Shown one piece after another: positions 17,773-51,206 of a stretch of 64,000 nucleotides of DNA. The translations under genes and the position numbers were made by a program. Under the pieces are notes generated by a model. That model was not told the DNA's origin and did no database searches. It saw nothing but the letters and a program-made list of their open reading frames with translations. This DNA is from Acidobacteriaceae bacterium (lineage in GTDB: Bacteria > Acidobacteriota > Terriglobia > Terriglobales > Acidobacteriaceae). The stretch's first letter is position 1. Every line of letters starts with the position of its first letter. The stretch is taken from positions 116,756 through 180,755 of the forward strand of contig DATDHZ010000080.1 in NCBI GenBank assembly GCA_036521315.1, read 5' to 3'.

Positions 17773-17776
17773 GCGG

Positions 17777-22920: not shown

Positions 22921-23068
22921 GCCGCGGAAAATTCGGCAGACACCCCGCGAATCGACGCTCTGGCAACGAAGGCGATGTTGGCGGTCACGCGAAACCCAGC
23001 CGGCACAGGATTTCGGGAACGACGCGGGGATGACACAGTTTTCTGCCATCCCCGGGAGGGATTGCGGT

Positions 23069-26647: not shown

Positions 26648-26878
26648 CGTGCTCCTCCTGAGAAATCCATTGGCTGGCGTCCAGCACTCCGGCGCCAGGC
26701 TTTGTGATTCGGGAGATGCTTGTTGTCTTTGCTCCCTGTGGTTTACCAGCGATTGTGATGCAGATCGCCGCGCACCGGGCAACAGCGCGGCCACGGCCTG
26801 ACACAGATCGCATCACAGCCGCTAAGTATTCGCGTCGAAATGTAGCGCTTACAAGGTTTTTTACGGTCAATTTGACGG

Positions 26879-31057: not shown

Positions 31058-31341
31058 CGGTTAAGGGCGGGACCCCACGGCCACCGTCTGGCGGATCGGA
31101 GAACGCACGTCAGGAATCGCGAAATTCATTGGCCTTGTTTTTATTACGAATCGGGTCGAGGTCTTACGGATAGGATCACTCTTGCGCTCGCGTCAAGGCG
31201 CGGTCCCGCTGCCGAACCGCGGATGGCCGGTGCGCACTTTGCCATGCTGAAATCTTGGTGAGGGTGCGATTCGAGCGTTCTTCCGCACCAATGGCCAGCT
31301 CATCGTAAAGGCTTGCGGGGCGGTCAAACGGAAACGACGGC

Positions 31342-31370
31342 TTGACAGCCTCGGGCGCTTTCTCTAGCCT
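31342..31370 (+). promoter_or_regulatory. Sigma70-like promoter of the alpha-galactosidase-like gene.
   Basis: TTGACA (31342-31347), a 17-nt spacer, then TAGCCT (31365-31370). The spacer contains GCTTTCT, and a CAAACGAAAG element follows at 31389-31398. Confidence 0.4.
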
Positions 31371-31419
31371 CACGCTCGTAAAGATAAACAAACGAAAGAC
31401 ACGCGAAGAGGGGGCAATC

Positions 31420-33882
31420 ATGAACAATCACCGAAGTATTGCAACAGGAGTCCTTCTCTGCGCAAGTTTGGCGTTACAGTCCGGGTGGTCCGCCCGGGCG
31501 GCCGCGCAACAAGCGCTGTCTGTTTCGGTGAACGACCGCGGTCAGTATGTCGTCGGCGTACCGGGCGACAACGCGCCGGTGCTGGTCTCGGGAGTCGCAG
31601 CGGAAGTAGGTGGCATCTGGATTCACAGCGCGGATTATCCGCATCACGCGATCCAGGAGACTGCAGCACAAGGCTATCTCGGCGCGGCGCAGCAGTGGAT
31701 CGTGACATTCTCCGGACTGGCGGGAAAACCGGATCTCGTCTACCGGCTGCGGTTGTACCAGTCGGAGCCATTTGCGGATGTGGCCGTCTCGGTGGAGAAT
31801 AATACCGGCCAACCCATCGACGTGGAGAGCCTTCGCGCGGTCGAGGCCGTGGGTGACGCGATCGCGGCGCTGGCCGGCCCTGCTGCGGCGGAGCGCGTGC
31901 TCTCCGACAGTTTCAGCGAAGACCGGCCGGCGATGCAGATTCACGATCTGGGCGATGCGACGCACGGCATGCACCGCGCGGTCGGCAGCCAGTTGATCTA
32001 CAACCGGCAAAGCCGTGAGAACCTCTTCGTCGGGGCGCTCACAGCGGATCGGTTCCTGACCATCTTGCGGCTGCACGTGGACGGGCCCGCTGAGGCTCCG
32101 CGCATCACGCATTACGAGGCCGATTCAACCGGTACGACGGAGATGGAAGAGGAAAACTCGCTTGAAAAATCTTCCGCCGAGGATCGTGTGGAATTGCGTC
32201 TGCCGGTCGAGCCGGGAGGGACGCTCTCGTCCGAGACGATAGCGATTGCTGCCGGCAACGATTATCACCGGGAACTGGAAACCTACGGCTCGCTCATCCG
32301 GACAATTCATCACGCGCGTGTTTCCGCACCGCCGCTGATGGGATGGTGGAGTTGGACGGCCTACTACTTCGGACTGAACGAGGGCGCGGCGCTCACCAAT
32401 GCCGCCTGGCTGGCCCAAAACCTGAAGAGCTTCGGTTACGACCTGTTTCACATTGACGAAGGCTACCAGTACGCCCGCGGCGAATATGTAACTGCGAATA
32501 GCACAGTTTTCCCCGACGGCCTCGGCCCGGTCGAATATCAGGTGCGGGGGCTCGGCCTGACGCCGGGCATCTGGACGGCCCCGTTTGAGATCTCTGAACG
32601 TTCTGAAGTCTATCGCGACCATCGCGATTGGCTGGTGAAGAACGCACAAGGCCAGCCGATCCACGCGGGATTTGTCGACGAGGACAAGGATCAGCTCTAT
32701 ATCCTCGACACGACCAATCCCGGAGCCGCGCAATACCTGCGCGAGACATACGGCAAGCTGGTCCGCGACTGGGGCATTCACTACATCAAGATGGATTTTA
32801 TGGACGACAGCGCAATCGAGGGCTACTACTTTGAGCCGCACACTACGGCGATGGAAGCGCAGCGCATCGGACTGCAGATCATTCGTGACGCTGTCGGCGA
32901 TCAGGTCTACCTCGACAAGGACGGCAGCGCGATGCTCAACCCCGTCGGCTACGTCGATTATGGGCGCATCTCGCAGGACACCGGCCACAGCTTCGAGGCC
33001 AGCCGCGATGCGGCCACCGGTATAGCTGCGCGCTACTACATGAATCGCAACTTCTATGTATCCGATCCCGATGCATTCACTGTCTCGACCCAGCGCATCA
33101 CCGATCAGTCGTGGCACGAGGGCAAAGCGCCGCTCACCCTAGAGGAGGCTGAGGTCTCCCTTGCGCTGGCGGCTGTATCCGGCGGCATGCTGGAGATCGG
33201 CGACAATCTGCCGTCGCTCGAGAACTCGCCAGATCGGCTGGCGCTGATCGAAAACCGCGATCTGATTAATATGGTGCGGCTCGGCAAGGCTTCGGTGCCG
33301 ATGGATCTGATGAGCTACGCAGTGGCGGATCGGCAGCCAAGCATCTTTTACCTGCGCGAATCGCCGCAACAGAGCATTCTCACCGTCTTCAACTGGACCG
33401 AGGGCGCGCAACGGCGGCAGATTCGGCTGGCCGATCTGGGTCTGCAGGAAACGGGCGACTATACCATCACTGACGTATTCGATCACGGGACGGTTGAAAC
33501 TGGGTCGGGAACGCTGGCTTTCGAGCAACCGGCGCATGCGGTGCGGGTGCTGAAGATCGTGGACCATACACATTCCGCGCCGCAATTCGTTTTCGCCGTC
33601 GACTGCCCGAAGTCGGGAGCTACGGGAACGCAGCTTTCCCTGGCCGCGCATGCGGGCGAGGGCGACCCCGCGCTTACCTTTCGCTGGGCCTTCGGCGATG
33701 GTGTGGAACAGGAGGGCGCGGAGGTACGGCATGCCTGGACGGAGCCCGGCGGCTATTCGGTTCGCGTGAGCGGTACGGGTCTGAACGGAGCGCAGCAGGA
33801 GCACACCTGCGCAGTGAACGTGACCGGATTGCTCCCGACGGTGTTCGCGCCCGAGAAGAATGCGCGCTACCAGCAAAAATGA
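31420..33882 (+). CDS. Secreted clan GH-D (GH27/GH36 melibiase-type) alpha-galactosidase or alpha-N-acetylgalactosaminidase-like enzyme with a C-terminal PKD domain.
   Basis: MGWWSWTAYYFGLNEGAALTNAAWLAQNLKSFGYDLFHIDEGYQYARGEY...GLTPGIWTAPFE. IHYIKMDFMDD is a KxD nucleophile context. GRISQDTGHSF is present. PKD-like FRWAFGDGVEQEGAEVRHAWTEPGGYSVRVSG. ATG 31420 is preceded by GAAGAGGGGG. Confidence 0.78.
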   Translation: MNNHRSIATGVLLCASLALQSGWSARAAAQQALSVSVNDRGQYVVGVPGDNAPVLVSGVAAEVGGIWIHSADYPHHAIQETAAQGYLGAAQQWIVTFSGLAGKPDLVYRLRLYQSEPFADVAVSVENNTGQPIDVESLRAVEAVGDAIAALAGPAAAERVLSDSFSEDRPAMQIHDLGDATHGMHRAVGSQLIYNRQSRENLFVGALTADRFLTILRLHVDGPAEAPRITHYEADSTGTTEMEEENSLEKSSAEDRVELRLPVEPGGTLSSETIAIAAGNDYHRELETYGSLIRTIHHARVSAPPLMGWWSWTAYYFGLNEGAALTNAAWLAQNLKSFGYDLFHIDEGYQYARGEYVTANSTVFPDGLGPVEYQVRGLGLTPGIWTAPFEISERSEVYRDHRDWLVKNAQGQPIHAGFVDEDKDQLYILDTTNPGAAQYLRETYGKLVRDWGIHYIKMDFMDDSAIEGYYFEPHTTAMEAQRIGLQIIRDAVGDQVYLDKDGSAMLNPVGYVDYGRISQDTGHSFEASRDAATGIAARYYMNRNFYVSDPDAFTVSTQRITDQSWHEGKAPLTLEEAEVSLALAAVSGGMLEIGDNLPSLENSPDRLALIENRDLINMVRLGKASVPMDLMSYAVADRQPSIFYLRESPQQSILTVFNWTEGAQRRQIRLADLGLQETGDYTITDVFDHGTVETGSGTLAFEQPAHAVRVLKIVDHTHSAPQFVFAVDCPKSGATGTQLSLAAHAGEGDPALTFRWAFGDGVEQEGAEVRHAWTEPGGYSVRVSGTGLNGAQQEHTCAVNVTGLLPTVFAPEKNARYQQK

Positions 33883-33923
33883 TCTCCAGAGGAGTATCGG
33901 GACTAAACGTGATCAGCCGGCGC

Positions 33924-34727
33924 TTACACGACAATCACTTCGATATGCAGAGCGCGCAGAGCCGCTTCCGTTTCGCGTTCGATTCCGCGGTCGGTGATGA
34001 CGCAGTGGATCGCATCGGGCGGAACAATGCGGGAAAGGCTGCGGCGACCGAACTTGGTCGAGTCGCAGACGGCGACCACGCGGCGCGCCGCCTTGACCAT
34101 CGCCCGGTTCACGCGCGATTCAAGAAAGTTCGGCGTGGTCAGCCCAATTTCCGGATCGAATCCGTCCACACCGAGGAAGAGAATGTCGGCGTGCATTTCC
34201 TTCAGCACGTCCTCTGCCAGCGGCCCGACCAGCGAGAAGGAGTTTTTGCGGAGGATGCCTCCGATCAGAACGACTTCGAGATTCGTGCTGGCCAGTTCAG
34301 CGGCAATGTTCATGGCGTTGGTGATGACGGTGAGCTGAGAGAATCGTCGCAATTCCTGGCAGATGGCCGTGGTGGTGGTGCCGGAATCGAGCATCACGCA
34401 TTGCCCTTCCTCCACCATTTTCGCGGCGGCTGCGGCAATGCGCTGTTTCTCCTGGAGATGCTGTTTCTGTTTCTCCTGCAGCGTGGGATCGAAGAGCGCG
34501 CTCGACTGAATGCGGAGCGCGCCGCCGTGGGTGCGCCGCACAAGGCTTTTCGACTGGAGATACTCCAGGTCCTTGCGAATGGTGATCTGCGAGATGCCGA
34601 GGTCGCGGGAGAGTTCCCCGACCAGCACGCGGCCATGGTTCTGAACCAGGGATAGAATATGCTGCCGGCGCTCGTCGATCAGGAGCTGGGGAGTTTCGTC
34701 GGCCTTTCGTGCCGATTTGCGGGCCAT
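33924..34727 (-). CDS. DeoR/GlpR family transcriptional repressor (AgaR-like by context).
   Basis: ERRQHILSLVQNHGRVLVGELSRDLGISQITIRKDLEYLQSKSLVRRTHGGA (DeoR HTH) plus a C-terminal sugar-phosphate-binding DeoRC pattern. Confidence 0.85.
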   Translation of the reverse strand: MARKSARKADETPQLLIDERRQHILSLVQNHGRVLVGELSRDLGISQITIRKDLEYLQSKSLVRRTHGGALRIQSSALFDPTLQEKQKQHLQEKQRIAAAAAKMVEEGQCVMLDSGTTTTAICQELRRFSQLTVITNAMNIAAELASTNLEVVLIGGILRKNSFSLVGPLAEDVLKEMHADILFLGVDGFDPEIGLTTPNFLESRVNRAMVKAARRVVAVCDSTKFGRRSLSRIVPPDAIHCVITDRGIERETEAALRALHIEVIVV

Positions 34728-34924
34728 CGTTTCGTTTGCTTTCCCCGGGAAGGTTACACCAAACCTCGGCTTTCGTCATCGATGATGCGTCGACGCGCAG
34801 GTCTGGCATACATTCGGCGGGCGCAGTTGTGGCTTCAGAGCACATTTTCGGGCTGGGACGATGAGTGCCCGGCTGTGAAGAGGAAGCAACAACGAAGGTT
34901 GCTACACTGCACCGGGAGACCCTC

Positions 34925-35869
34925 ATGCCTGCGCTGGATATTACGATTGCCGGCGAGGTCAATCTTGACCTCATCCTTTACGGCCTCGACGAGGCGATTC
35001 CGGTCGATCGCGAAGTGCTGGGATCCAATTTTGAATTGACCCTTGGCAGCTCGTCGGCCATTCTCGCGCACAATCTCTCCGTTTTGCGACGCCGCGTCGG
35101 TTTCGTTACGCTCTGCGGGTCCGACGCTATGGGCGCAATTGCCATGGAACGGCTCGCGGAGGGGGGTGTCGATTTGTCACAGTCGAAGCAAGGCGGCCCG
35201 GGAACAAAGACCGGCGTCACCATCCTGCTGCCGCATGGCCGATCGCGCCGCATTCTTACCTATCCTGGCATTATGTTCGACATGAAGGTAGCCGACCTGG
35301 ACATCGACTATCTCGCGTCGGCCCGCCATTTTCATCTGTCGTCGCTATTTTTGTTGCGCGGCCTTCACGCGGGCCTTGCAGACTTGCTCCGCGCACTGAA
35401 GAGGCGAGGCCTGACGCTGTCGCTCGACACGAATGACGACCCTGACGGTCAATGGAACGGGGTGCTCCAGGACGTGCTGCCGCTGATCGATATCCTTTTA
35501 CCCAACGAAGACGAAGTCTGCCGCATAGCGCGGCGCGGGTCGATGGCGGAGGCGCTCGATGTTCTTGGGGGCATGATTCCGATGATCGCCGTGAAGTGCG
35601 GCAGCCGGGGCGCGGTCGTGCAGCAGGGGGAGCGTCGAATGGAAATTCCGCCCGTGCCGATGCAGCCTGTAGACACCATCGGTGCGGGTGACAGCTTCAA
35701 CGCTGGTTTTCTCTCTGCCTGGCTCTCCGGAGCGCCTGCGGAAACGTGCGCTGCCGCCGGAAATGTGACCGGAGCGCTCTCAACGCAGCGCCCCGGCGGG
35801 ACCGAGGCATTTCGCGATCGGGCGCTGATGGAAGAGTTCCTGGGCCGGCATCCGCTGCCCGCGGGATGA
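34925..35869 (+). CDS. PfkB-family carbohydrate kinase (possibly tagatose-6-phosphate or ketose-phosphate kinase).
   Basis: MPALDITIAGEVNLDLILYG... and the C-terminal anion-hole motif DTIGAGDSFNAGFL. The stop overlaps the AgaS start (ATGA 35866-35869). Confidence 0.85.
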   Translation: MPALDITIAGEVNLDLILYGLDEAIPVDREVLGSNFELTLGSSSAILAHNLSVLRRRVGFVTLCGSDAMGAIAMERLAEGGVDLSQSKQGGPGTKTGVTILLPHGRSRRILTYPGIMFDMKVADLDIDYLASARHFHLSSLFLLRGLHAGLADLLRALKRRGLTLSLDTNDDPDGQWNGVLQDVLPLIDILLPNEDEVCRIARRGSMAEALDVLGGMIPMIAVKCGSRGAVVQQGERRMEIPPVPMQPVDTIGAGDSFNAGFLSAWLSGAPAETCAAAGNVTGALSTQRPGGTEAFRDRALMEEFLGRHPLPAG

Positions 35870-37164
35870 AGAACGGTACCTTGACTTGCTGTTGGTTTCG
35901 CTTTCCAATGATACCTTACGCTTCATTACGAAGATCAACCGCCAGCCTCAAAAGGCTCGCGGGCGTCCGGGGGAACATCACGGTGGACCCACTTACCAAC
36001 CTGGTCGGCCTGAGCGCGCCGGAAAAGGCTGCGCGGGGCCTCGAGTTCACGCCTGCCGAGATCTCCCAGCAGCCCAGAACCTGGATTGCGACATTTGATC
36101 TGTTGCTAAAGCGGCGCAAGGATCTGATCGATTTCCTGACAAATGCGGGGATCGCCAGACCGACGGAGCAGAGGCCGACCGTATTTCTTATCGGCGCCGG
36201 GACGTCGGACTACATTGGCCGATCGGTGCACCACCTCTTGCAGACGCAGTGGCAATGCGAAGTGATTCCGCTGGCGAGCACCAGCCTGCTAACTGATTTT
36301 GCTGAGTCGATCATCAGAGATAAACGCTATCTCTGGATCTCTTTTTCACGTTCCGGAGACAGTCCCGAAGGGGTCGCAGTGCTGGAGCGCGCTCTGGCGG
36401 AGTATCCGGCAATTGCGCATTTGCTGGTCACCTGCAACCAGGCCGGTCGCATGAACCGGGCCGTACACGGGCGCGACAACTGCTTTTCGATTGTGCTCGA
36501 TAATGCGACGAACGATCGTGGCCTGGCGATGACCAGTTCATTCACCAATATGGTGCTGACCGCACAGTTTCTCGCGCATGCCCGGAGTCTCGAGGTGTAC
36601 GAGCCGGTCCTGCGCCGGCTGGCCGGCGCCGCGCAGGGATTCATGCCGCGGGCTGCGGAAATGGCTTTTGATCTGGCCGCAACGGGCTTCGAGCGTGCCT
36701 GTTTCGTTGGATCGTGTTCGCTGGCGGGCGCCGCGCTCGAATGCTCCCTCAAACTGCTGGAACTGACGTCCGGCCAGGTACAGACGATGACGCAACCGAC
36801 CCTCGCTCTTCGGCACGGGCCGATGGCCGCGCTCAATGGAGAAACGCTGTTCGTCGGTCTCGTGTCGAGCCACCCGCAGAGACGCCGTTACGAATTGGAC
36901 CTGCTGCGGGAAGTGGGCAGCAAGGGGCTGGCGAAAGTGAGAGTCGCCATTGCGACAGATCCCGACGGCCTTGCCTCCGATGCCGAGCACGTTCTGTCCC
37001 CTGGCGCTGCGGGGCCGATCCCCGACCTGTATCGGCCGATGCTCGATGTGATCTTCGGCCAGTTGCTCGGGCTGTTTGCGTCCATTCGCTGCGGGCTCAA
37101 ACCGGACGCGCCGAGCCCCACCGGGGCCATCAATCGCGTCGTGCAGAACGTAGAAATCTATTAG
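35866..37164 (+). CDS. agaS: AgaS-type double-SIS galactosamine-6-phosphate deaminase/isomerase.
   Basis: Collinear with E. coli AgaS as I recall it: PAEISQQPRTW, ISFSRSGDSPEGVAVLERA, VTCNQAG, NDRGLAMTSSFTNM, LRHGPMAAL, SSHPQRRRYELDLL, PDAPSPTGAINRVVQNV. The start is ATG 35866 or ATG 35908. Confidence 0.85.
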   Translation: MKNGTLTCCWFRFPMIPYASLRRSTASLKRLAGVRGNITVDPLTNLVGLSAPEKAARGLEFTPAEISQQPRTWIATFDLLLKRRKDLIDFLTNAGIARPTEQRPTVFLIGAGTSDYIGRSVHHLLQTQWQCEVIPLASTSLLTDFAESIIRDKRYLWISFSRSGDSPEGVAVLERALAEYPAIAHLLVTCNQAGRMNRAVHGRDNCFSIVLDNATNDRGLAMTSSFTNMVLTAQFLAHARSLEVYEPVLRRLAGAAQGFMPRAAEMAFDLAATGFERACFVGSCSLAGAALECSLKLLELTSGQVQTMTQPTLALRHGPMAALNGETLFVGLVSSHPQRRRYELDLLREVGSKGLAKVRVAIATDPDGLASDAEHVLSPGAAGPIPDLYRPMLDVIFGQLLGLFASIRCGLKPDAPSPTGAINRVVQNVEIY

Positions 37165-37433
37165 CTGCCGCGCGAGGCTCTCCTCCGGCATTCCTGTCCA
37201 CGCGTGTCCTCCCGGAGTTGCGGGCAATCTGGCACCTGACAGGTTCCAGAGGACCGGTGAACGTAGGCCGGCCGGCGATTACCCCTCTTGATCACCGTCC
37301 AGGCGCCGGACGGCATAAACATCTCAATCCTCGCGATTCCATCAAGATAACCATGGCGCGGCGAGCTGGTTGGCGACGGCGCCAGAGCAAATCCGTGTCC
37401 GGGTTCGAACAAAACGAAAGTTTGTGGTTTCGC

Positions 37434-37463
37434 TTGACAGGGTTTAGAAACTAGCAGTACTGT
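37434..37463 (+). promoter_or_regulatory. Sigma70-like promoter of the second TonB-dependent receptor gene.
   Basis: TTGACA (37434-37439), an 18-nt spacer, then TACTGT (37458-37463). AAAACGAAAG (37411-37420) and TTTCGC (37428-37433) abut the -35 element. Confidence 0.4.
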
Positions 37464-37545
37464 TTAACGCGAGTAACAGAACACATGCTGTCGGTGTGCT
37501 CTGTCAGAGTCAGGGTTGTGCAAGGCTTTGTTTCTGGAGGCGAGG

Positions 37546-40500
37546 ATGTCTGGATTTTGGGGGAAGATCGATCGGATTATTAGAGATGGATGGATGGGTT
37601 CCCGGTCCGTAACAGGGCGCATTGTGGCTGTGGCTCTTGCGTTGGGACTGATGACAGCCTGCACTGCCGCGGCGCAAACGGCGAGCACCTTCGACACCGG
37701 CACCATCACCGGCACCGTCACGGATCAGTCCGGCGCAGTCATTCCGCATGCATCGGTGACGATCTCCAACACCGGAACCGGCAACACGATCAAGGCTCAG
37801 TCGAACGATGAAGGGATCTTTTCTGCGCCGGGGCTGCCCTTCGGCAATTATGTCGTGACTGCTTCAGCCAGCCAGTTTGCACAGACCACGACGAAGCCTT
37901 TTGCGCTGAACGTGGGCGCCACGGTGCGCGTCGACCTGAAGTTATCCGTCGCCGCGGCAACCGAAAATGTCACGGTCACAGGAACTTCGGTTACGGTCGA
38001 TACGAACAGCGCAACCGCTGGCACGACCATGAATGAGGATCAGATTCGCAACCTGCCCACGAACGGCCGTGACGTGATGGACTTCCTGGAGATTGCTCCT
38101 GGGTCCATCAACTCTACCGGGTATTTCCAGGGCAGCGTAAACGGCCAGGAAAACTTTCTGACCGGACTGAATGTGACGCTCGATGGCCAGAATTCGACGC
38201 GTCCCGATGTCAACGGCTTCGATGAGACGGAGGGAAACGAGGCCAATCGCCTAACGCGGGCGAGCATCGACAGCATTCAGGAAATTGATTTTGCCAACAG
38301 CGGTTACAGCGCCGAGGTGGGCGATTCGCTGGGTCCCCAGATGAACATCGTGACCAAGGGCGGGACGAACGAATACCACGGTGAGTTATTCGATTTCTTC
38401 CGCAACGACGCCCTCGACGCGAACGATTATTTTGCCAACACGCTGACGAATCCGAAAGTGCCGCTGCGGATGAACCAGTTCGGGGCCAATCTGGGCGGGC
38501 CTTTCGTGAGAAACAAGGTTTTCTTCTTCGCCAGCTACGAAGGCATTCGCCAGCGGACGACGCAGATCAACGCGATTTACGAGGTGCCGAGCGCTTACGT
38601 ACGTTCGCAGTTCGTGGCGGCCATGCAGCCGGTGCTTGCGCAGATGGCGCCTCTGCCCGCCGGGTGCACCGCGATCCCCGCGCCGGCTTCCTGCGCCGAC
38701 CCGTCCACCGTGGACGAGACAAATGCCACAACGAAGGCCCACGGAGCCCAGTTGGTCTTTGATCCCGCTGCTTTTTCCACCAGTTTGCGGGAAGACAGCG
38801 GCGCAATCCGCGTGGACTACAACGTGGGTGATAAGGATCGAATGTTTGTCCGTTTCAACATCGATAATGGGCTGACCAACCAGCAAGTGGGGCTCAATCA
38901 GGGCCAGACCACGCCGCTCGCCGAGGTCAATAAGTCGACGATGATTGACGAAACGCACACGTTCACCCCGAACCTGGTGAACGAGCTGAGCATAGCGTTC
39001 CACAGCTTCTACTCGAACACGAATTCCGAAACCCCGCAGCCCTTAACGCAGTTTAGCGGCTTCTTCGTGAATCTCGGTGCGCTTCCCGGCGCCCCGATCA
39101 GTTTCAATCAGATCAACCCACAGTCGAAATTCGAGATCTTCGATAACGCGACGAAAACCGCCCGTAGCCATACGATTCGCTTCGGAACGCATATCCAGTT
39201 CAACCGCATCAATGAGTGGCTTCGCCCCCTGCAGAACTTTGCTTTCGGCGATTTTTCCGACCTCGAGAACGACCGGCCCTTCGTGCTGCAGAAGATCGGA
39301 TTCAACAACTTTGTCGGCGTGCGCAACTCCAACTGGGATCTGTACGCCGAGGATGACTGGCGCGTGAGCCCAAAGCTCACGCTGAACGCCGGGCTGCGCG
39401 TCGGCATCAACACGGCCTGGAGTTTCAGGGACAACGTGGCACCCAACTTTGATTTTGCCACGCAGTCGTTTCTGCCGGCCAATCAAACGGCCTACAAGGG
39501 TCCGACTTACGATGTGGCGCCGCGCCTTGGGCTCAACTTCGATCCTTTCGGCCACGGCAAGACGGTGATTCATGCTTACTACGGGCTGTTCTTCAATCCG
39601 ATGCACTTTGGAACCAACCTGGTGAGCAACAATCCAGCCTATGAGAGCTACTCACTGAATGCCTTCGAGGTGGCACTGGTCTATCCGATGGCGAATCCCC
39701 CGCTGCCTGCAGGCACACAGAACGTCTATATCGTTCCGCGGAGCATGCATGACCCTTACTCGCCGAACTGGCTAGTGGGCATTCAGCAGGAAATCCTGCA
39801 CAACACAGTTCTCACCGTGAACTACACGGGGAATGAAGACCATCGACAGGATTCGGGCATCGATTTCGCGGCGGAAAACCTGAACCCGCCGAACTACTTC
39901 AGCCAGGCGTATCCGTTGCCGGGTTTCGCCAACGAGTATTACGAGCCGGACGTGCTGCAATCCAGCTATAACGCCCTCCAGGTGCAGCTCCGTCACAACA
40001 TCGGCAAACTCAATGTGGAAGGCAACTACACCTGGTCGCACGAGATCGACGACATGGTGAATGTCTTCAACAGCTTTTCCGATCCTTACAATCCGCGCGA
40101 TGACTTTGGCAATGGCGACTGGGACGTCCGCCATAACCTGACCGGCAGCGTCGTCTACAACTTCACCGATCTGAACGGGCACGGCGCGCTGATGCGCACC
40201 CTTCTCGGCGGATGGCAGACGTCCACCATCGTCCAAACGCGCTCCGGCGATGCGATCAACGTGACAGATTCCGGTGGCGGCATTTTCGGCCTGTCCACCC
40301 GGCCCAACTCCACCGGGCAGCCGGTGAAGTTGTCGAACTTCTCCTGGCCGTATCACACATACAACATCCACGCGTTCATAGTCCCCCCGACGTTCAATGG
40401 CACGCCTGGCGATCCTTCGACGCTCGGCAATGTCGGGCGGAACAGCCTGCGAGGACCCGGGTTCTTCCAGTGGGACTTCTCGGGGATGAAAAACTTCCCG

Positions 40501-40731
40501 CTGACGGAGAAAGCGAAGCTGCAGTTCCGCGGCGACCTGTTCAACATCCTCAATCACCCGAACTTCGGCAACCCCGGTGTGGGAGTTTGCACCTCGTTTT
40601 CGGTCTTTGGCTGCGCTCCCAACACAACCAACTTCGGTCATGTTGGCTCGACCATCGCAGATCAGGACGCGAGCCTGGTCGGCACAGGAACGGCACGGCA
40701 AATTCAGCTCGCTCTGAAGGTCATCTTCTAG
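37546..40731 (+). CDS. TonB-dependent outer-membrane receptor with a CarboxypepD_reg-like N-terminal domain.
   Basis: GGAGGCGAGG lies upstream of ATG 37546. Signal peptide ...AVALALGLMTACTAAAQT. TGTITGTVTDQSGAVIPHASVTISNTGTGNTIKAQSNDEGIF. Plug region (NLPTNGRDVMDFLEIAPG). Barrel ending ...LALKVIF. Confidence 0.85.
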   Translation: MSGFWGKIDRIIRDGWMGSRSVTGRIVAVALALGLMTACTAAAQTASTFDTGTITGTVTDQSGAVIPHASVTISNTGTGNTIKAQSNDEGIFSAPGLPFGNYVVTASASQFAQTTTKPFALNVGATVRVDLKLSVAAATENVTVTGTSVTVDTNSATAGTTMNEDQIRNLPTNGRDVMDFLEIAPGSINSTGYFQGSVNGQENFLTGLNVTLDGQNSTRPDVNGFDETEGNEANRLTRASIDSIQEIDFANSGYSAEVGDSLGPQMNIVTKGGTNEYHGELFDFFRNDALDANDYFANTLTNPKVPLRMNQFGANLGGPFVRNKVFFFASYEGIRQRTTQINAIYEVPSAYVRSQFVAAMQPVLAQMAPLPAGCTAIPAPASCADPSTVDETNATTKAHGAQLVFDPAAFSTSLREDSGAIRVDYNVGDKDRMFVRFNIDNGLTNQQVGLNQGQTTPLAEVNKSTMIDETHTFTPNLVNELSIAFHSFYSNTNSETPQPLTQFSGFFVNLGALPGAPISFNQINPQSKFEIFDNATKTARSHTIRFGTHIQFNRINEWLRPLQNFAFGDFSDLENDRPFVLQKIGFNNFVGVRNSNWDLYAEDDWRVSPKLTLNAGLRVGINTAWSFRDNVAPNFDFATQSFLPANQTAYKGPTYDVAPRLGLNFDPFGHGKTVIHAYYGLFFNPMHFGTNLVSNNPAYESYSLNAFEVALVYPMANPPLPAGTQNVYIVPRSMHDPYSPNWLVGIQQEILHNTVLTVNYTGNEDHRQDSGIDFAAENLNPPNYFSQAYPLPGFANEYYEPDVLQSSYNALQVQLRHNIGKLNVEGNYTWSHEIDDMVNVFNSFSDPYNPRDDFGNGDWDVRHNLTGSVVYNFTDLNGHGALMRTLLGGWQTSTIVQTRSGDAINVTDSGGGIFGLSTRPNSTGQPVKLSNFSWPYHTYNIHAFIVPPTFNGTPGDPSTLGNVGRNSLRGPGFFQWDFSGMKNFPLTEKAKLQFRGDLFNILNHPNFGNPGVGVCTSFSVFGCAPNTTNFGHVGSTIADQDASLVGTGTARQIQLALKVIF

Positions 40732-40849
40732 GCGCGGCGCAACTGGAGATCGACGGCAATCGCGAGCGGATCGCTCATCCGCTCGCCGACTCCCAGTCAC
40801 TCCTGGTCTCGCGTTCCGCGCGGCGGCACACGCACCTGCAGGAGGGTCT

Positions 40850-42031
40850 ATGCACACGGGTGGATCCCTCGCACTGCTTGCTTCGCTCGTCGCCGTTCTT
40901 TTCCCGGCCGCGTGCGGCGGAGCGGGATCGGGCTCGCAGCCGGTGCCCCCGCACACCCCGCAATCGTCCGGTTACTTTCCCTACCAGCAGGGTTGGCTCG
41001 GCGCGGACGGCGCCTATTCGATCCCGATTGCCACGAACCAGAGCCTTTGGATCTTTGCCGACACCTTCATCGGCCCCTCGACTGCAACCAGCCGCACGCA
41101 AGCCAACGGATTCATCCACAACTCCATCGCCATCTCCACCTGCTCGAGCGGCAGCTGCAGCTTTCAGTACTACTGGCCGGGAATGGGCACATCGAATCAG
41201 AGCGCAGTCTTTGCCGCTCCAGAGACGGACTGGTTCTGGCCGATGGATGGCTTCACCTATAACGGCACGCTCTATCTGGCGCTGATGCAGATGCACGCTC
41301 AGGGCAGCGGCGCGTTTGGCTTTGCCTACAGCGGCTCGCAACTAGCCAGCATCAGCAATTACAAGGCCCCACCCTCGCAGTGGAAGATCACCTACCAGCA
41401 GCTCAATAGCGGCGGCAGCGCGGTCCCTGGCATCTCCATCGTCGTCAATCAGGGACCGAGCGGCAATCCCGACCCCTCGAATCCGCAGGGCGCGAACTAC
41501 GCCTACTTCTTTACCGGTGCAGGCGCCAGGCCGTATCTTGCTCTGCTGCGCCTGCCGCTCGCCGATCTCGACAACCTCGCGCGACCAGGCAACACCGACT
41601 GGCAATATCTGAATACCAGCGGGACCTGGGAGTCCTGGCCGGACGCGGCCACTACGCTGCCCGCCGACAATGCGCCCCTCATCAATCCAGGAGCGACGGA
41701 GATGACCGTTCGCTGGCACAGCTCAACAAACCAGTGGATTGCCGTCTACCCGTCGGGTCTCAAGAACTATGCCTACTACAGCCTTTCCTCTTCCCTGACC
41801 AGCGGCTGGGGCTCGCAGGAGACGGTCTATACCTATCCGGAGATGCAGCCCGGTAATCCCAATTACACGCCCAATGTCTTTTGTTATGCGGCGAAGGAGC
41901 ACGTCGAGTTCGAAACGGCCGGACAGCTCTTTTTCACTTACGCCTGCAATTCCACCGTCGAGAGCGATGTAACGAATAACATGAACCTTTATCACCCGGT
42001 GGTCGTCACGCAGGCGCTGCCGAGCCAGTAG
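40850..42031 (+). CDS. DUF4185-like beta-propeller protein, predicted lipoprotein (putative glycoside hydrolase, GH183-like).
   Basis: Lipobox-like LVAVLFPAACGG. QQGWLGADGAYSIPIATNQSLWIFADTFIG resembles the N-terminal G-x-D-x-x-x-S...W-x-F-x-DT pattern I associate with DUF4185. The size (about 370 aa mature) fits. Family assignment is from memory only. Confidence 0.5.
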   Translation: MHTGGSLALLASLVAVLFPAACGGAGSGSQPVPPHTPQSSGYFPYQQGWLGADGAYSIPIATNQSLWIFADTFIGPSTATSRTQANGFIHNSIAISTCSSGSCSFQYYWPGMGTSNQSAVFAAPETDWFWPMDGFTYNGTLYLALMQMHAQGSGAFGFAYSGSQLASISNYKAPPSQWKITYQQLNSGGSAVPGISIVVNQGPSGNPDPSNPQGANYAYFFTGAGARPYLALLRLPLADLDNLARPGNTDWQYLNTSGTWESWPDAATTLPADNAPLINPGATEMTVRWHSSTNQWIAVYPSGLKNYAYYSLSSSLTSGWGSQETVYTYPEMQPGNPNYTPNVFCYAAKEHVEFETAGQLFFTYACNSTVESDVTNNMNLYHPVVVTQALPSQ

Positions 42032-42098
42032 GAGTTGACGGGTGATCGGGCCTACCGCGACGCGCAATTCGGAACCGAGGACGACGAATGGAACAACC

Positions 42099-43217
42099 AT
42101 GAAGATTTGCCTTCGCGCATTCGCATGGGCCGCCCCTTGCCTGCTGCTCTTTTCGGGGCACCGCGCGTTTGCGGCAGCGCCCGGCTCCACATGTACGCCG
42201 GAGTTCCCGCTCGAACACGCACAGGCTAACGGATGGCTGGGTGCGGATGCCGCCTACTCCATTCCGCTGCCCGACGGCCGCGATGTGTGGATCTTCGGCG
42301 ACACGCTCTACGGTGAGCAGCGGGTGGTCAACGGGTCGACTCCGCAGATGGTGCGCAACAGCATCGGCATCTCCACGTGCCGGCATGGCCGATGGCACGT
42401 GCAGTACGTGATCCGCAAAGATGCACAGGGGCGGCCGGACTCTTACTTCACCCCCGAGCACCCGAACACGTGGTACTGGGCGCTCGACGGATTCGTCGCC
42501 GGACGCGATTTGTGGGTGACGCTGCTCTGCGTGCGCAGTGCGCCGGCGAAAACGGCAGCCATGGGGTTCGAGACATGCGGCACGGATCTCGCCCACATTC
42601 CTTCGCCCGGCCCCGATCCGCAGAGCTGGAAGATCGACTACTTCCCACTGGTGCCCGACGGCGCGCATGCCTATCCTTCAGCAACCGCGGTGGTCGATGG
42701 TCCGGATGCGTACGTCTTCGCTCTGAACGAGAAGGGCAACCGGCCCCTCGAGGCCACGCGCATCCCGCTGTCCGGCCTCGCCGATCCGCAGAAGAATCTT
42801 GAATACCTGGCGAGCGATGGTCAGTGGAAGCCAGGATTCGATCCAGCCGCCGCCCAGGAAGTGATGCATAGGGGATCGCCTGAGCTTTCCATCCGCTACC
42901 ATCCCGAGCTCAAGCAGTGGATTGCGGTCATGTTTGACCCTGAGGCGTTCTCGTCGAGGATCCTGCTGCGCACCGCGCCCTCGATCACAGGGCCGTGGGG
43001 CGACGGTCAGGTCATCTATACCGTCCCGGAGATGCAGCCCACCACGCCGGGTTACGACAAAAACACATTTTGCTACGCTGCCAAGGAGCATCCCGAATTC
43101 GAGCGCGGCGATCTGGTCTTTACCTATGTGTGCAACACGTTCGATGTTCCAAAACTGGCTGCGAACCTAAGCATCTACTTTCCGCGCGTCGTGCGCCGGT
43201 CGATGCCGCCGCTTTAA
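42099..43217 (+). CDS. Second DUF4185-like beta-propeller protein, with a cleavable signal peptide (paralogue of the preceding gene).
   Basis: MKICLRAFAWAAPCLLLFSGHRAFAAAPG. ANGWLGADAAYSIPLPDGRDVWIFGDTLYG. The C-terminal NTFCYAAKEHPEFERGDLVFTYVCNT parallels NVFCYAAKEHVEFETAGQLFFTYACNS in the neighbour. Confidence 0.5.
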   Translation: MKICLRAFAWAAPCLLLFSGHRAFAAAPGSTCTPEFPLEHAQANGWLGADAAYSIPLPDGRDVWIFGDTLYGEQRVVNGSTPQMVRNSIGISTCRHGRWHVQYVIRKDAQGRPDSYFTPEHPNTWYWALDGFVAGRDLWVTLLCVRSAPAKTAAMGFETCGTDLAHIPSPGPDPQSWKIDYFPLVPDGAHAYPSATAVVDGPDAYVFALNEKGNRPLEATRIPLSGLADPQKNLEYLASDGQWKPGFDPAAAQEVMHRGSPELSIRYHPELKQWIAVMFDPEAFSSRILLRTAPSITGPWGDGQVIYTVPEMQPTTPGYDKNTFCYAAKEHPEFERGDLVFTYVCNTFDVPKLAANLSIYFPRVVRRSMPPL

Positions 43218-43250
43218 AAACCCGAAGCCGCGCGGGCGGAGCGAGGACGG

Positions 43251-44072
43251 TTGATGGCCGACGGTATTCGCAACCCGGTTTTATCGGAAGAACTATCAGG
43301 CCATCCCGGCGTGCGGCTGCTCACGCTGTATTCGCCCGGGCTGCGGCATCGCGCCGACGTGACGCTGTATTTGCCGCCTGCGCCCGCGGGTCGTCCCCTG
43401 CCGCTGCTCATCCTCATGCATGGCGTTTATGGCAGCCACTGGAATTGGTGTGCGATGGGAAATCTGCCGTCCATCGCAGGCGAGATGCTCACCGCGGGCG
43501 AGATCACCCCTATAGCTGTCGCGATGCCCTCCGATGGGCTTTGGAGCGACGGCAGCGGTTACGTCGCGCACAAGCGCTTCGACGCCGAGGCTTGGATCAT
43601 CGACGATGTTCCCACGTGCGTGCGGGGTTTCTTTCCGCAGATTCAAACCAGTAGGGTCTTTCTCGCTGGACTTTCCATGGGCGGATTCGGGGCTCTGCGC
43701 ATTGGCGCGAAGCATGCGTCACGAGTAGCCGGCATCTCAGCGCATTCTGCGGTCACCAGCCTCGCCGATCTGAGGCAATTCATCCAGGACCCGATTGAAG
43801 ACGACCTGACCGCCGGCAAACGCGACGCGGACCTTCTTTACTGGATGCGCCGCAATCGGTCCCGCCTTCCTCCGATCCGCTTCGACTGCGGGACAGGAGA
43901 TTCGCTGCTGGCCGGCAATCGGGCGCTTCACGCGGCACTACAGCGGGCGCGCATCCCGCATGCATACGAAGAGCACCCCGGCGGACACGACTGGGCGTAC
44001 TGGCAGCGGCACGTGCGCACCACACTGCGCTTCGCCTCGCAACTCGCCTGCGAATCCGCTCAATTTAGCTGA
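43251..44072 (+). CDS. Esterase D / 'putative esterase' (PF00756-like) alpha/beta hydrolase.
   Basis: PLPLLILMHGVYGSHWNW, nucleophile elbow GLSMGGFGAL, and C-terminal HPGGHDWAYW. Confidence 0.72.
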   Translation: MMADGIRNPVLSEELSGHPGVRLLTLYSPGLRHRADVTLYLPPAPAGRPLPLLILMHGVYGSHWNWCAMGNLPSIAGEMLTAGEITPIAVAMPSDGLWSDGSGYVAHKRFDAEAWIIDDVPTCVRGFFPQIQTSRVFLAGLSMGGFGALRIGAKHASRVAGISAHSAVTSLADLRQFIQDPIEDDLTAGKRDADLLYWMRRNRSRLPPIRFDCGTGDSLLAGNRALHAALQRARIPHAYEEHPGGHDWAYWQRHVRTTLRFASQLACESAQFS

Positions 44073-46263: not shown

Positions 46264-46288
46264 GGAAATCACTCCTGGAACAGAGAAA

Positions 46289-46313
46289 TGTATGATTCGG
46301 CACAAATCATACA
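46289..46313. promoter_or_regulatory. Perfect 9-bp inverted repeat TGTATGATT-N7-AATCATACA upstream of the Tat-exported protein gene.
   Basis: The arms at 46289-46297 and 46305-46313 are exact reverse complements. Located 26-50 nt upstream of ATG 46263. Confidence 0.4.
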
Positions 46314-46405
46314 GGAATTGGTTCCGCTTTGCGGAGATTCGTTCATACAAGGCGCGAACTCGCCAGCAGCCGATTCGGCGCACTTGCCACACCGCGGCAA
46401 CGCAC

Positions 46406-47251
46406 TCAGACGCGCAGCACTTCGATGCCCAGCTTCTGATAGGGCGCGATCAGTTCATCCGTCGCGCCGCTGTCGGTGATCAGGGTGCGCAGTAAAGTGG
46501 TTTCGCAGATGCGCCAGTTTGCCACGACGTTCAGCTTTGTATGGTCGACGACGGCGATGTGTCGTCGCGCATGGCGTGCCATGGTGGCGTTCAGCTCCGC
46601 TTCATCGGCGTTGAAACAGCTGACGCCCCACTGCGGATCGATGCCGTCGGCGCCCACAAACATGGTGTGAATGAGCATATTCTCAAGGCTGCGAATCGCT
46701 GTCGGCCCCACCAGCGAGAACCATTCACCGTGCAGATGCCCTCCCGTGACGAAGACGTTAATGTCCTTCCGCTTCGAAAGCTCCATCGCGATGTTCGCAG
46801 TGTTTGTGACGACGGTGATTTTGCTGTTGAGCGGCAATCCGCGAATGATCTCCGCCGTGGTTGTGCCTGGCGTGATGGCGATCGTCTCTCCGGAGGTGAT
46901 GAGCGCGGCCGCAGCCCGTCCAATGCGCCGCTTCTCGTTCGCCTGCCGCTCCACCTGCGCTGTGAATGAGCGGTCCTTCTTGAAGGGCTCGTAGAAGAGC
47001 GGCTCGATAGAGACTGCTCCGCCGTGCGTGCGCCGCAGCAGTCCCTGTTGTTCCAGCAAGTCGAGATCGCGCCGGATGGTCACGACAGAAACGCTGAGCA
47101 GTTCGGCCAGCTCGTCGACCACCACCGAGCTGGTGTCCTGCAAAGAAGTCAAAATCGAGTTGATCCGCTGCTGTTGCTTTTCCCGGCTGTGTGATGCTTC
47201 TGCGTTGCCGCCTGCCGGCGTTGCTTTCTTCTTCTTCGCTCGTTTGACCAT
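46406..47251 (-). CDS. DeoR family transcriptional repressor with a Lys-rich N-terminal tail.
   Basis: MVKRAKKKKATPAGG... then VVVDELAELLSVSVVTIRRDLDLLEQQGLLRRTHGGAV (DeoR HTH) and a DeoRC-like C-terminus. ATG 47251 is preferred over ORF-track start 47320. Confidence 0.85.
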   Translation of the reverse strand: MVKRAKKKKATPAGGNAEASHSREKQQQRINSILTSLQDTSSVVVDELAELLSVSVVTIRRDLDLLEQQGLLRRTHGGAVSIEPLFYEPFKKDRSFTAQVERQANEKRRIGRAAAALITSGETIAITPGTTTAEIIRGLPLNSKITVVTNTANIAMELSKRKDINVFVTGGHLHGEWFSLVGPTAIRSLENMLIHTMFVGADGIDPQWGVSCFNADEAELNATMARHARRHIAVVDHTKLNVVANWRICETTLLRTLITDSGATDELIAPYQKLGIEVLRV

Positions 47252-47501
47252 GCCATGCCCTTTCCGGCGCTGCTTATCCCTCTCGCTCGCGAGCTTTTCC
47301 CATCCGAAATCACGACACAACCGAAAACCTTAGAAATCGAACGAGATGTTTATATCGGAAAGTTGCCGTGTTCGAAAGTGACGAAAAGAATCCCGAATGA
47401 AAAGCGGGACTCCGCTCGCCTGCCGGACCGGGGCGGGGAATTCTGAGGCTGGAATCCCGAACTGAGCATGACGGGGATGTAGATTTATTGCTAATTCGGC
47501 A

Positions 47502-47559
47502 AAAACGAACATGACTTATGATTGTTATCGTTGAAAACGAACAAACAATCTGCTACGAT
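47502..47559 (+). promoter_or_regulatory. Direct 10-bp repeats AAAACGAACA (47502-47511, 47534-47543) overlapping a TTGAAA-17-TACGAT promoter of the cupin-PGI operon.
   Basis: TTGAAA 47531-47536 and TACGAT 47554-47559. The -10 ends only 11 nt before ATG 47571. An imperfect complement TGTTATCGTT lies at 47523-47532. Confidence 0.45.
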
Positions 47560-47570
47560 TCCTTCCTGTC

Positions 47571-48158: not shown

Positions 48159-48162
48159 TCCA

Positions 48163-48948: not shown

Positions 48949-48955
48949 AGACCGC

Positions 48956-51205: not shown

Positions 51206-51206
51206 G

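Follow-up and report, generated by a model that had tools for sequence, protein, structure and literature searches.

A probable junction of two sugar-use modules with a common AgaR-type operator family in an Acidobacteriaceae genome

A 64,000-nucleotide stretch of DNA from an Acidobacteriaceae bacterium (assembly GCA_036521315.1, contig DATDHZ010000080.1, positions 116,756-180,755 of the forward strand), hereafter the window, contains a series of sugar-use genes that was originally predicted, from the letters of the sequence, to form one regulon at 31320-44072 for a polymer of galactosamine (GalN) or N-acetylgalactosamine (GalNAc). We consider it reasonably probable that this span is instead the junction of two independently inherited sugar-use modules, each under its own AgaR-family repressor and both using one family of operators. 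Module A (31335-37166) encodes a GH36-family enzyme with a PKD domain, the DeoR-family repressor AgaR, a PfkB-family kinase and an AgaS-family enzyme. Module B (about 37391-55600) is led by a TonB-dependent receptor, two DUF4185-like genes and an esterase, and it carries a second AgaR-family regulator, which we call DeoR2. The motif that recurs in the promoters, CTTTCGTTT, is by its sequence a conserved AgaR-type repressor site and a candidate for binding by AgaR-family proteins.

The nearest public loci to the window (about 62% G+C) belong to Acidobacteriaceae metagenome-assembled genomes, and our comparison set consists of 15 related Acidobacteriaceae loci (designated by L-numbers), which are contig fragments. 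Scans of genome and metagenome collections for AgaS gave three and two loci, respectively, and most loci came from exact-protein look-ups, with homologues of the second DUF4185-like protein (DUF4185b) leading to the module B loci (L008, L009/L010, L013, and L014) and homologues of AgaS to the module A loci (L004, L005, L015, L016, L017, and L019-L022). Protein families were scored with Pfam and NCBIfam profiles, structures were sought by sequence searches of the PDB, AlphaFold2 was used for modelling and Foldseek for structural comparison, and a hand-made gene list was used for the intergenic motif statistics.

Separate conservation of the two modules

In the four module B loci, the receptor, one or two DUF4185-like genes, and the esterase follow each other in the same order, and the loci continue with a convergent gene for a 732-aa protein exported by twin-arginine translocation (TAT) and a DeoR-family gene. 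Two cupin glucose-6-phosphate isomerase (GPI)-type isomerases, a 750-aa unknown protein, and a 577-aa protein come next in L008, L009/L010, and L014, followed by a ROK kinase in L008 and L014; the L009/L010 locus ends before this point, and only the first isomerase falls within L013. No aga genes were found near any of these loci. The window shows the same arrangement from 37546 to about 55600, including DeoR2, whose gene adjoins the receptor/DUF4185/esterase operon in every full copy of module B and is never next to agaS outside the window. The individual genes are conserved as well: a receptor of the same type heads the same operon in L008, L009, L013, and L014, the esterase is kept downstream of the second DUF4185-like gene in these loci, and the DeoR2 orthologues there are 81-92% identical. 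The 732-aa protein has an 88% identical orthologue in L008 and a gene of the same size at the same position in L009, L013, and L014, and together with a 749-aa protein of module B it is 84-88% identical to its L008 counterpart, with genes of matching size and position in the other module B loci.

Module A is found without module B in L004, L005, L015, L016, L017, and L019-L022, as the full unit in most of them. The GH36/AgaR/PfkB/AgaS cassette occurs without DUF4185 genes in L004, L015, L016, L017, and L019-L021, and in these loci, as in the window, agaR is divergent from pfkB-agaS. AgaR orthologues that are 71-91% identical are present in all module A loci except L003 and L022, adjoined by GH36 orthologues of 59-69% identity in L004 and L015 and by domain-matched GH36+PKD genes in L016 and L019-L021. 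The cassettes have receptors of other types, one of 1175 aa together with a 640-aa unknown protein in L015 and L016 and one of 1104 aa in L019-L021. The window receptor is only 24-30% identical to the receptors linked to aga cassettes elsewhere, and we rejected orthology with them on this basis. In one case both modules lie on a single contig (L014 and L015), about 250 kb apart.

The boundary between the modules is sharp, as blastn similarity to module A loci stops at 37166 and similarity to module B loci starts at about 37391. Apart from the window, only L003 was found to have the modules side by side, and its proteins share 81-97% identity with those of the window. Coupling of AgaS to DUF4185-like enzymes had been singled out in the original prediction, and the genes are indeed adjacent in the window, but because each module is conserved separately, we regard the combination as a lineage-specific juxtaposition. 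In L003, agaR has been cleanly deleted between the GH36 gene and pfkB (L003 143-270, compared with window 33883-34924), and the locus retains the pfkB promoter and an intact receptor operator. As L003 has kept module A and lost agaR, module A may depend on another regulator there. The separate conservation of the modules and the persistence of the receptor operator in L003 both argue against the whole span being one regulon for a GalN/GalNAc polymer, and it is probably not a single galactosamine-glycan regulon. Finally, in L011/L012 a related receptor is paired with just one DUF4185 gene, a GntR/FCD regulator takes the place of the DeoR type, and the motif is absent.

An AgaR-type operator family and two candidate repressors

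The operator core of both modules reads TTTCGTTT / AAACGAAA. The 8-mer TTTCGTTT occurs four times in 64 kb (1.1 expected), three times in three promoter regions and once inside a histidine-kinase gene, and AAACGAAAG occurs three times (0.37 expected), with copies at 31390-31398 in the GH36 leader and 37412-37420 in the receptor promoter. At 34729-34743, GTTTCGTTTGCTTTC abuts the agaR ATG. These main copies lie within 1-2 nt of where they had been placed originally, and the predicted TTTCGC (37428-37433) and TTGACA-17-TAGCCT (31342-31370) can also be read. Two further elements fared less well: GAAACGA (31331-31337) is neither conserved itself nor part of the conserved promoter block, and CTTTCGT (34770-34776) is not conserved beyond the closest relatives. 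The pattern TT[TC]CGT[AT]T, derived from the related loci only, has 10 matches in the window, 5 of them in 61 kb of coding DNA; the intergenic matches comprise 5 in the 1667 bp of promoters of the region versus none in 973 bp elsewhere.

For calibration we used the aga region of E. coli K-12, where 13 kb contain seven copies of TTTCGTTT (0.9 expected), all of them in the agaR-kbaZ intergenic region and upstream of agaS, and AgaR binding to these promoter regions has been reported (PMC3668189). A weight matrix built solely from these seven sites finds its top match in the whole window at the receptor-promoter site AACTTTCGTTTTGTTCGA (37405-37422), with a score of 21.7 compared with a maximum of 18.4 among the 10 of 20 shuffles listed, and the same site is the top match in L003, L008, L013, and L014. 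Six of the seven top window matches fall in module A or module B promoters, which together make up about 1.7 kb of the 64 kb: besides 37405 these are 47332 (score 14.8), 54027, 35913 in the pfkB-agaS spacer (13.3), 31383 in the GH36 leader (12.9), and 34727 in the agaR leader (12.9). In 10 of 12 related loci, the single best match of the matrix is in the corresponding module promoter. The E. coli matrix and the promoter placement of the sites thus bear out the AgaR operator core on which the original prediction was built.

The three main operator sites are all kept in orthologous loci, according to alignments of the receptor promoter (A1), the agaR leader and pfkB promoter (A2), and the GH36 promoter (A3). 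L019 and L021 share the GH36 promoter block CTTTCTCTAGCCTCACGCTCGTAAAGATAAACAAACGAAA without any change and L016 retains most of it, and the same loci have TTGACA-17-TAGCCT with the following CGCTCGTAAAGATAAACAAACGAAA in identical or, for L016, mostly retained form. The agaR leader, GTTTCGTyTGCTTTCC-loop-GGAAGG-TACACCAAACC, is nearly invariant in the window, L006, L015, L016, and L019, and in E. coli CTTTCG sites occupy the same position against the agaR start codon. A conserved TGGTAATAATACGGAA(T/G)C element of the pfkB promoter is present in L004, L015, L016, and L017. The spacer between pfkB and agaS holds a fourth module A site that the first reading had missed, and its pattern TTTCG..TT..GA..TT.CG..T..TTACGA is invariant in six loci (alignment A6). 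In module B, the receptor promoter TGTCCG..AAAACGAAAG-N7-TTTCGCTTGACA-N4-TTAGAAAC and its leader block are invariant in six loci, four of them without aga genes nearby. The DeoR2 control regions also hold AAAACGAAC, and the k-mers that rank highest in the four copies of this region outside the window are AAACGAA and CGAAAG. Within the window, several AAACGAA sites are present in the divergent region next to DeoR2 (47252-47570). Upstream of the module B sugar porter, which belongs to the major facilitator superfamily (MFS), lies an AgaR-like CTTTCGTATATAAAC (55569-55590), and the matrix match at 54027-54044 is in the intergenic region between the ROK kinase and porter genes; in L009 and L013 the porter is inside the DeoR2 operon, and that promoter has an equivalent AgaR-like site.

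The two regulators form separate orthologous groups, with 71-92% identity within and 35-38% between them; in the window they are 37% identical to each other. AgaR, with HTH_DeoR and DeoRC domains, passes the NF040755 equivalog model (267 bits, cut-off 260) and is 39% identical to E. coli AgaR. The best NCBIfam match of DeoR2 is to the same model, below the cut-off at 200 bits. The recognition-helix regions are ISQITIRKDL in AgaR, VSVVTIRRDL in DeoR2, and VSTVTIRNDL in E. coli AgaR. The promoters of the modules differ in k-mer content: ACGAAAG is absent from 2650 bp of module A promoters outside the window versus six occurrences in 1433 bp of receptor promoters, and TACGGAA is found only in module A promoters. 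From synteny and this k-mer flavour, DeoR2 appears likelier than AgaR to be the primary regulator of the receptor operon, and it is most likely the cognate regulator of module B.

Several observations weigh against this division into two regulatory units. The site sets of the two modules are not confidently distinguishable, as the module A sites in the window use the AAACGAAA core too, and the receptor site is the most E. coli-AgaR-like site in the window; with a shared core and the best AgaR-like score at that site, AgaR could bind the receptor promoter as well. The window and L003 place both modules side by side on the same strand, and module A of the window is without the receptors that accompany it elsewhere, which fits recruitment of the module B receptor. 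In addition, the relatives are contig fragments, so that the absence of agaR from module B loci holds for the stretch around each locus. Since both paralogues appear to use one operator family, co-regulation is possible, and AgaR and DeoR2 might share one regulon in the manner of the paralogous repressors GalR/GalS and NagC/Mlc of E. coli, which have operators in common. Both would then bind all or most of the sites and respond to two effectors, and the adjacency in the window lineage would represent an ongoing regulatory merger. This would account for the E. coli-like core that the two sets of promoters share, for the similar recognition-helix regions of the three proteins, and for L003, which has lost agaR yet keeps module A beside module B. 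We nevertheless regard it as rather unlikely, because in other genomes TACGGAA is confined to module A promoters and ACGAAAG to module B promoters, and because the modules are unlinked in most genomes.

The single AgaR regulon of the original prediction, in which the receptor would import oligosaccharides of a GalN/GalNAc polymer for processing by the DUF4185-like enzymes and the esterase and for catabolism by PfkB and AgaS, draws on the exact 9-mer AAACGAAAG at both the GH36 and receptor promoters, on the AgaR equivalog match, and on the lack of a receptor belonging to module A itself in the window. Its premise that some aga regulons include a TonB-dependent receptor is correct for Shewanella (PMC2996990), and we infer the same for L015, L016, and L019-L021. 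However, four loci keep the receptor operon and its operator together with DeoR2 and have no aga genes nearby, the operator is still present in L003 despite the deletion of agaR, the aga-linked receptors elsewhere are different proteins (about 25% identical), no module B gene is specific to amino sugars, and DeoR2 had been overlooked, all of which makes this reading improbable. It is very improbable indeed that the motif is a compositional or architectural feature of Acidobacteriaceae promoters, such as an A/T-rich UP-like element or a leader sequence. The A/T content is higher in intergenic than in coding DNA, the receptor site has the position of an UP element, and the intergenic comparison (5 in 1667 bp against 0 in 973 bp) is weak when taken alone, but the sites vary in position (upstream of the -35, downstream of the -10, or in the leader against the start codon), they are invariant while flanking bases vary, they match experimentally defined AgaR-controlled regions of E. 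coli, and they occur neither in the remaining intergenic DNA of the window nor in L011, which is under GntR control.

Gene content and predicted roles

The features of both modules are listed in Table 1. All of the genes named in the original prediction are present according to Pfam, NCBIfam, and PDB matches. Other scans of the window contributed little: a sigma-70/terminator scan gave one promoter-like site compared with 4.1 expected and was uninformative, an Rfam scan found no RNA family, and a repeat finder returned nothing relevant.

Table 1. Genes, predicted sites, and the junction of modules A and B (window coordinates)
Feature	Position	Strand	Details or basis
Module A
GH36 promoter and predicted operator	31342..31400	+	-35 TTGACA 31342-31347; -10 TAGCCT 31365-31370
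GH36 leader operator (predicted)	core 31390-31398		reads CTTTCGTTTGTTTATC on minus strand; sequence read
GH36-family alpha-galactosidase/alpha-galactosaminidase-like enzyme, C-terminal PKD, predicted secreted	31420..33882	+	Pfam, PDB
agaR, DeoR-family repressor, AgaR orthologue	33924..34727	-	NCBIfam NF040755
agaR leader operator (predicted)	34727..34766		TCGTTTCGTTTGCTTTCC, then palindromic/hairpin element CTTTCC-loop-GGAAGG, then TACACCAAACC; A2
pfkB promoter region	34875..34909	+	degenerate operator AAGCAACAACGAAGG, -10 TACACT; equals TGGTAATAATACGGAA in other loci (A2)
PfkB-family sugar kinase	34925..35869	+	Pfam PfkB 150.8 bits
pfkB-agaS spacer, predicted internal promoter/operator	35870..35982	+	TTGACT 35881-35886; GGTTTCGCTTTCC 35894-35906; TTACGCTTCATTACGAAG 35916-35933
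agaS-family sugar-phosphate deaminase/isomerase, predicted substrate GalN-6-P	35983..37164	+	PDB 3c3j
Junction
Junction between modules	37167..37390		blastn of 37000-37700 against related loci
Module B
Receptor promoter with predicted operator	37396..37484	+	AAAACGAAAG 37411-37420; inverted TTTCGC 37428-37433 abutting -35 TTGACA 37434-37439; TTAGAAAC 37444-37451; -10 TACTGT 37458-37463; conserved leader block TTTAACGCGAGTAACAGAACAC 37463-37484
TonB-dependent receptor, CarboxypepD_reg + OMP_b-brl_4 barrel	37546..40731	+	Pfam; 97% identical in L003
DUF4185-like copy a, predicted GH183-superfamily beta-propeller, possible lipoprotein	40850..42031	+	PF13810 35.5 bits, below cut-off of 39.5; DUF5005 match
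DUF4185-like copy b, predicted GH183-superfamily 5-bladed beta-propeller	42099..43217	+	open reading frame extends upstream to 42042
CE1-like carbohydrate esterase, PF00756	43251..44072	+	64.5 bits, cut-off 22
TAT-exported 732-aa protein	44065..46263	-	predicted TAT signal; synteny
DeoR2, second AgaR-family regulator, syntenic regulator of module B	46406..47251	-	Pfam HTH_DeoR, DeoRC
Divergent DeoR2/cupin-isomerase control region (predicted)	47332..47559		AgaR-like sites 47332-47349 and 47350-47378 (TTATATCGGAAAG-N7-GTTCGAAAG); AAAAACGAACA 47501-47511; TTGAAAACGAAC 47531-47542 overlapping -35; -10 TACGAT 47554-47559
Two cupin GPI-type isomerases	47571-48158 and about 48001-48948		
TAT-exported 749-aa protein	48956-51205	+	
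576-aa protein, mannose-6-P-isomerase-like domain	51207-52937	-	
ROK kinase	52927-53997	-	
MFS sugar porter	54159-55535	-	operator-like sites at 54027 and 55576

The GH36 enzyme of module A has Melibiase, Melibiase_C, and PKD matches in Pfam, of which that to PF02065 scores 57.5 bits against a cut-off of 27 and is partial, covering profile positions 46-192 of 347. Among solved structures Thermotoga GalA (TmGalA; 1zy9, E 5e-33) comes closest, and the GH36 alpha-galactosidase 5m0x was also matched; the N-terminus has a hydrophobic, signal-peptide-like segment when the translation is read by eye. The PfkB protein is placed in the ribokinase/2-keto-3-deoxygluconate (KDG) kinase/YdjH-like group and not in the LacC/1-phosphofructokinase type (LacC being a tagatose-6-P kinase). 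Its best NCBIfam matches, to IolC, ribokinases, tagatose kinase, and fructoselysine kinase, are all below their cut-offs, and its PDB matches are YdjH (3h49) and KDG kinase (1v19). As for the description of the last gene as a clear AgaS orthologue, the part that stands is a full-length match to E. coli AgaS (3c3j, E 5e-55, query 38-417 to chain 7-379; 34% identity by tblastn); the score for TIGR02815 (286 bits) is below the cut-off of 529, and the protein is a divergent member of the AgaS family. Translational coupling of pfkB and agaS had also been proposed, and longer open reading frames do start at 35908 and at 35866 (an ATGA overlap). However, most of the AgaS homologues listed have 393 aa, and the three sequences of 393 or 394 aa that we read begin with MDPL or MNPL, which points to GTG 35983 as the likely start and leaves a conserved spacer of 113 bp, making coupling unlikely.

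We found no homologue of KbaY, KbaZ, AgaI, or the K-12 AgaA fragment (a pseudogene) in the 64-kb window, in agreement with the original observation that deacetylase and aldolase genes are missing; a GatZ/KbaZ-like gene follows agaS in L016. In module A, AgaR is predicted to occupy four sites (in the leaders of the GH36 gene and of agaR, at the pfkB promoter, and in the spacer ahead of agaS) and to block transcription until it is released by a GalN-derived sugar phosphate. The GH36+PKD enzyme, once secreted, would cleave terminal alpha-linked galactose or GalN(Ac), and PfkB and AgaS would turn the imported amino sugar into tagatose-6-phosphate, with later steps of the pathway presumably encoded elsewhere. 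Because there is no deacetylase in the window, GalN is the likelier substrate rather than GalNAc. A fructosamine pathway of the frl type, which also pairs a PfkB kinase with a SIS protein, was considered on account of an amino-acid permease in L004 and the weak fructoselysine-kinase match, and it was ruled out by the AgaS-family assignment of the SIS protein, the AgaR model match, and the operators matching those of E. coli.

Some relatives have variants of this cassette. In L004 (753-1877, 6227-9879), an APC-type amino-acid permease and an unknown protein of 650-690 aa lie between pfkB and agaS, and in the more distant aga cassette of L005 (5852-7882) the PfkB kinase forms one protein with an Amidohydro_2 (PF04909) domain. 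These variants suggest that a free cationic amino sugar is taken up in those lineages and that an additional step of hydrolysis takes place. The agaR leader, for its part, has a stem of CTTTCC and GGAAGG (34740-34755) with a loop of CCG in the window and TTC in L006, L015, L016, and L019. The CCUUCC arm in the agaR mRNA might pair with a GGAAAG Shine-Dalgarno-like sequence, which might add translational control.

Both DUF4185-like proteins of module B are probably divergent members of the GH183 superfamily and active retaining hydrolases. Copy b matches PF13810 above the cut-off (47.8 bits, cut-off 39.5), though only over profile positions 164-295, and 91 of 94 diverse homologues match the same profile at E <= 0.001. 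The AlphaFold2 model of copy b has a mean predicted local distance difference test (pLDDT) score of 91.6, and Foldseek places it closest to BACOVA_04882 (4hbs, E 3.5e-17) and to the endo-D-arabinanase EndoMA1 (8ic1/8hhv, E 5e-17; template modelling (TM) score 0.65 on the query and 0.51 on the target; 17% identity), with the next families, GH68 and GH43, far behind at about 1e-7. In EndoMA1, D33 is the nucleophile and D51 the acid/base, with R198 and E243 as additional residues (PMC10509167). In the family of copy b, D50, D68, and E262 are invariant and R221 is nearly so, and their spacing parallels that of D33, D51, R198, and E243, including an Asp pair 18 residues apart. Against the assignment it must be said that this correspondence is one of spacing and invariance and not of residue-level superposition. 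Copy a is 31-34% identical to copy b and has both conserved Asp residues. The subfamily is large, with more than 1,100 sequence clusters at E <= 1e-10, and every match that carries a taxon name is from Acidobacteriota, most matches being unnamed.

The esterase has PDB matches to 5vol and to the feruloyl esterases 7xrt and XynZ (1jjf), resembling feruloyl and acetyl esterases of CE1, and no N-terminal hydrophobic segment or evident signal peptide was seen in its translation. For the 732-aa and 749-aa proteins, sequence searches of PDB, Pfam, and NCBIfam gave no usable match, and a single-sequence AlphaFold2 model of the former was discarded at a pLDDT of 35.9; these are likely to be undescribed periplasmic glycan-active enzymes. 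The 576-aa protein has no Pfam match, and its central region resembles mannose-6-phosphate isomerase (PDB 1zx5, E 2.6e-10; 1qwr). Together with the two cupin GPI-type isomerases and the ROK kinase, it hints at catabolism of a neutral hexose or pentose in module B. Within the two-module reading, module B would be a glycan operon led by the receptor, in which the two GH183-like beta-propeller proteins would be retaining hydrolases, either periplasmic or lipoproteins, alongside the CE1 esterase. Its repressor, probably DeoR2, would act on the inverted pair AAAACGAAAG-N7-TTTCGC abutting the -35 and probably on a second site in the leader, as well as on the divergent DeoR2/isomerase region and the MFS promoter. 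Upon induction, oligosaccharides would be taken up through the receptor, cleaved in the periplasm by the two propeller hydrolases, and de-esterified, and the released monosaccharide would be imported, isomerised, and phosphorylated.

It is tempting to consider that the adjacency of the modules is functional and that both target actinobacterial arabinogalactan/lipoarabinomannan of soil necromass, merging under one operator family, although we give this idea a low probability. The D-arabinan of arabinogalactan/lipoarabinomannan carries non-stoichiometric galactosamine and succinate substituents, according to the legend of Fig. 1 in PMC10115798. The GH183-like enzymes would then cut D-arabinan, the esterase would strip acyl groups, the GH36+PKD enzyme would remove GalN for catabolism by PfkB and AgaS, and the cupin isomerases, ROK kinase, and MFS porter would handle the released neutral sugar. 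If true, this would be a TonB-dependent system under AgaR-family control by which Acidobacteria consume cell walls of the mycobacterial type.

The window as a whole is a cluster of glycan-utilisation operons. Upstream, on the minus strand at 15547-26794, lies a separate receptor-led operon, in which the TonB-dependent receptor has 1241 aa and the enzymes are a canonical GH36 protein (749 aa) and two MGH1-like (GH63-like) hydrolases (930 and 852 aa); the TonB-dependent receptors in the window are of the CarboxypepD_reg + OMP_b-brl_4 type. A gene with FG-GAP and UnbV_ASPIC domains, often with a TPR gene, flanks module A in the window (29309-31057) and accompanies either module in different genomes (L009 2092-5034, L013 12030-14975, and L021 11391-13139), marking a rearrangement-prone neighbourhood. 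Unrelated to these operons, a gene for a BlaR1-type M56 peptidase sensor is found on the minus strand at 1496-3558, followed by a small open reading frame (3124-3558) at the position of a BlaI-like repressor.

Significance and comparison with known systems

At the level of predicted operators, our results extend AgaR-type regulation to Acidobacteriota. The AgaR core established for E. coli can be recognised in this phylum with hardly any change, and aga-type regulons should therefore be predictable from sequence in a group of soil bacteria that is poorly studied and hard to culture. We were also able to tell apart two widespread and uncharacterised modules of Acidobacteriaceae, namely a GalN-type GH36+PKD cassette and a receptor-led operon with a large GH183-like subfamily. 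To our knowledge, GH183 has been known only as an endo-D-arabinanase family acting on mycobacterial cell walls, and the substrate of its relatives in soil would bear on the recycling of microbial necromass by Acidobacteria. Lastly, paralogous repressors with near-identical operators, together with a natural deletion of agaR in a close relative, provide a tractable case for the study of cross-talk and regulon merger. These findings extend known themes and do not amount to a new kind of system.

The aga/gam regulon of E. coli, in which the repressor AgaR controls the promoters PR, PZ, and PS and AgaS is a GalN-6-P deaminase (Hu et al. 2013, PMC3668189, citing Ray & Larson 2004), resembles module A in many respects: a DeoR-family AgaR gene is divergent from the catabolic genes and has a site against its own start codon, agaS-family genes have a separate regulated promoter, and the TTTCGTTT core is present in multiple copies. 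In contrast to E. coli, the window has no phosphotransferase system, AgaA deacetylase, or KbaY/KbaZ, and it has a PfkB kinase and a putatively secreted GH36+PKD glycosidase; the protein identities are 34-39% across different phyla, and the window AgaS is below the TIGR02815 cut-off. The Aga regulon of Shewanella and other proteobacteria, with the outer-membrane TonB-dependent transporter omp-Aga, the permease AgaP, the kinase AgaK, AgaA-II, and AgaS (Rodionov et al. 2010, PMC2996990), is similar in being a pathway with a kinase, AgaS, and AgaR that is independent of a phosphotransferase system, and a dedicated TonB-dependent receptor is likewise found in L015, L016, and L019-L021. It differs in that the receptor beside the window cassette is a member of a separate conserved module, the kinase is of PfkB type, a deacetylase is missing from the window, and the unit includes a GH36 enzyme.

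GH183 (DUF4185) endo-D-arabinofuranases have been described together with D-arabinan utilisation loci (Al-Jourani et al. 2023, PMC10115798; Shimokawa et al. 2023, PMC10509167), and the module B enzymes are like them in the predicted 5-bladed beta-propeller fold, for which EndoMA1 is one of the best structural matches, in an Asp pair with an Arg and a Glu at parallel spacing, in the tandem paralogous copies, and in the placement in a glycan-uptake locus. Unlike them, copy b is only 17% identical to EndoMA1, copy a is below the Pfam cut-off, both belong to a distinct subfamily that also matches DUF5005, and the window locus has no GH172, GH116, or other known D-arabinan partner. Module B also recalls the SusC/SusD polysaccharide utilisation loci of Bacteroidota, as genes for glycoside hydrolases and an esterase follow a TonB-dependent receptor gene in one operon that has a local, sugar-responsive regulator, but no SusD family match was found in the operon with Pfam, the gene after the receptor being DUF4185-like, the receptor has the CarboxypepD_reg + OMP_b-brl_4 architecture typical of Acidobacteria, and the regulator is of DeoR type and not a hybrid two-component or SusR-type protein. 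The closest parallel for the regulators themselves is offered by GalR/GalS and NagC/Mlc, which the window resembles in having two paralogues in one genome whose predicted target promoters contain the same core motif.

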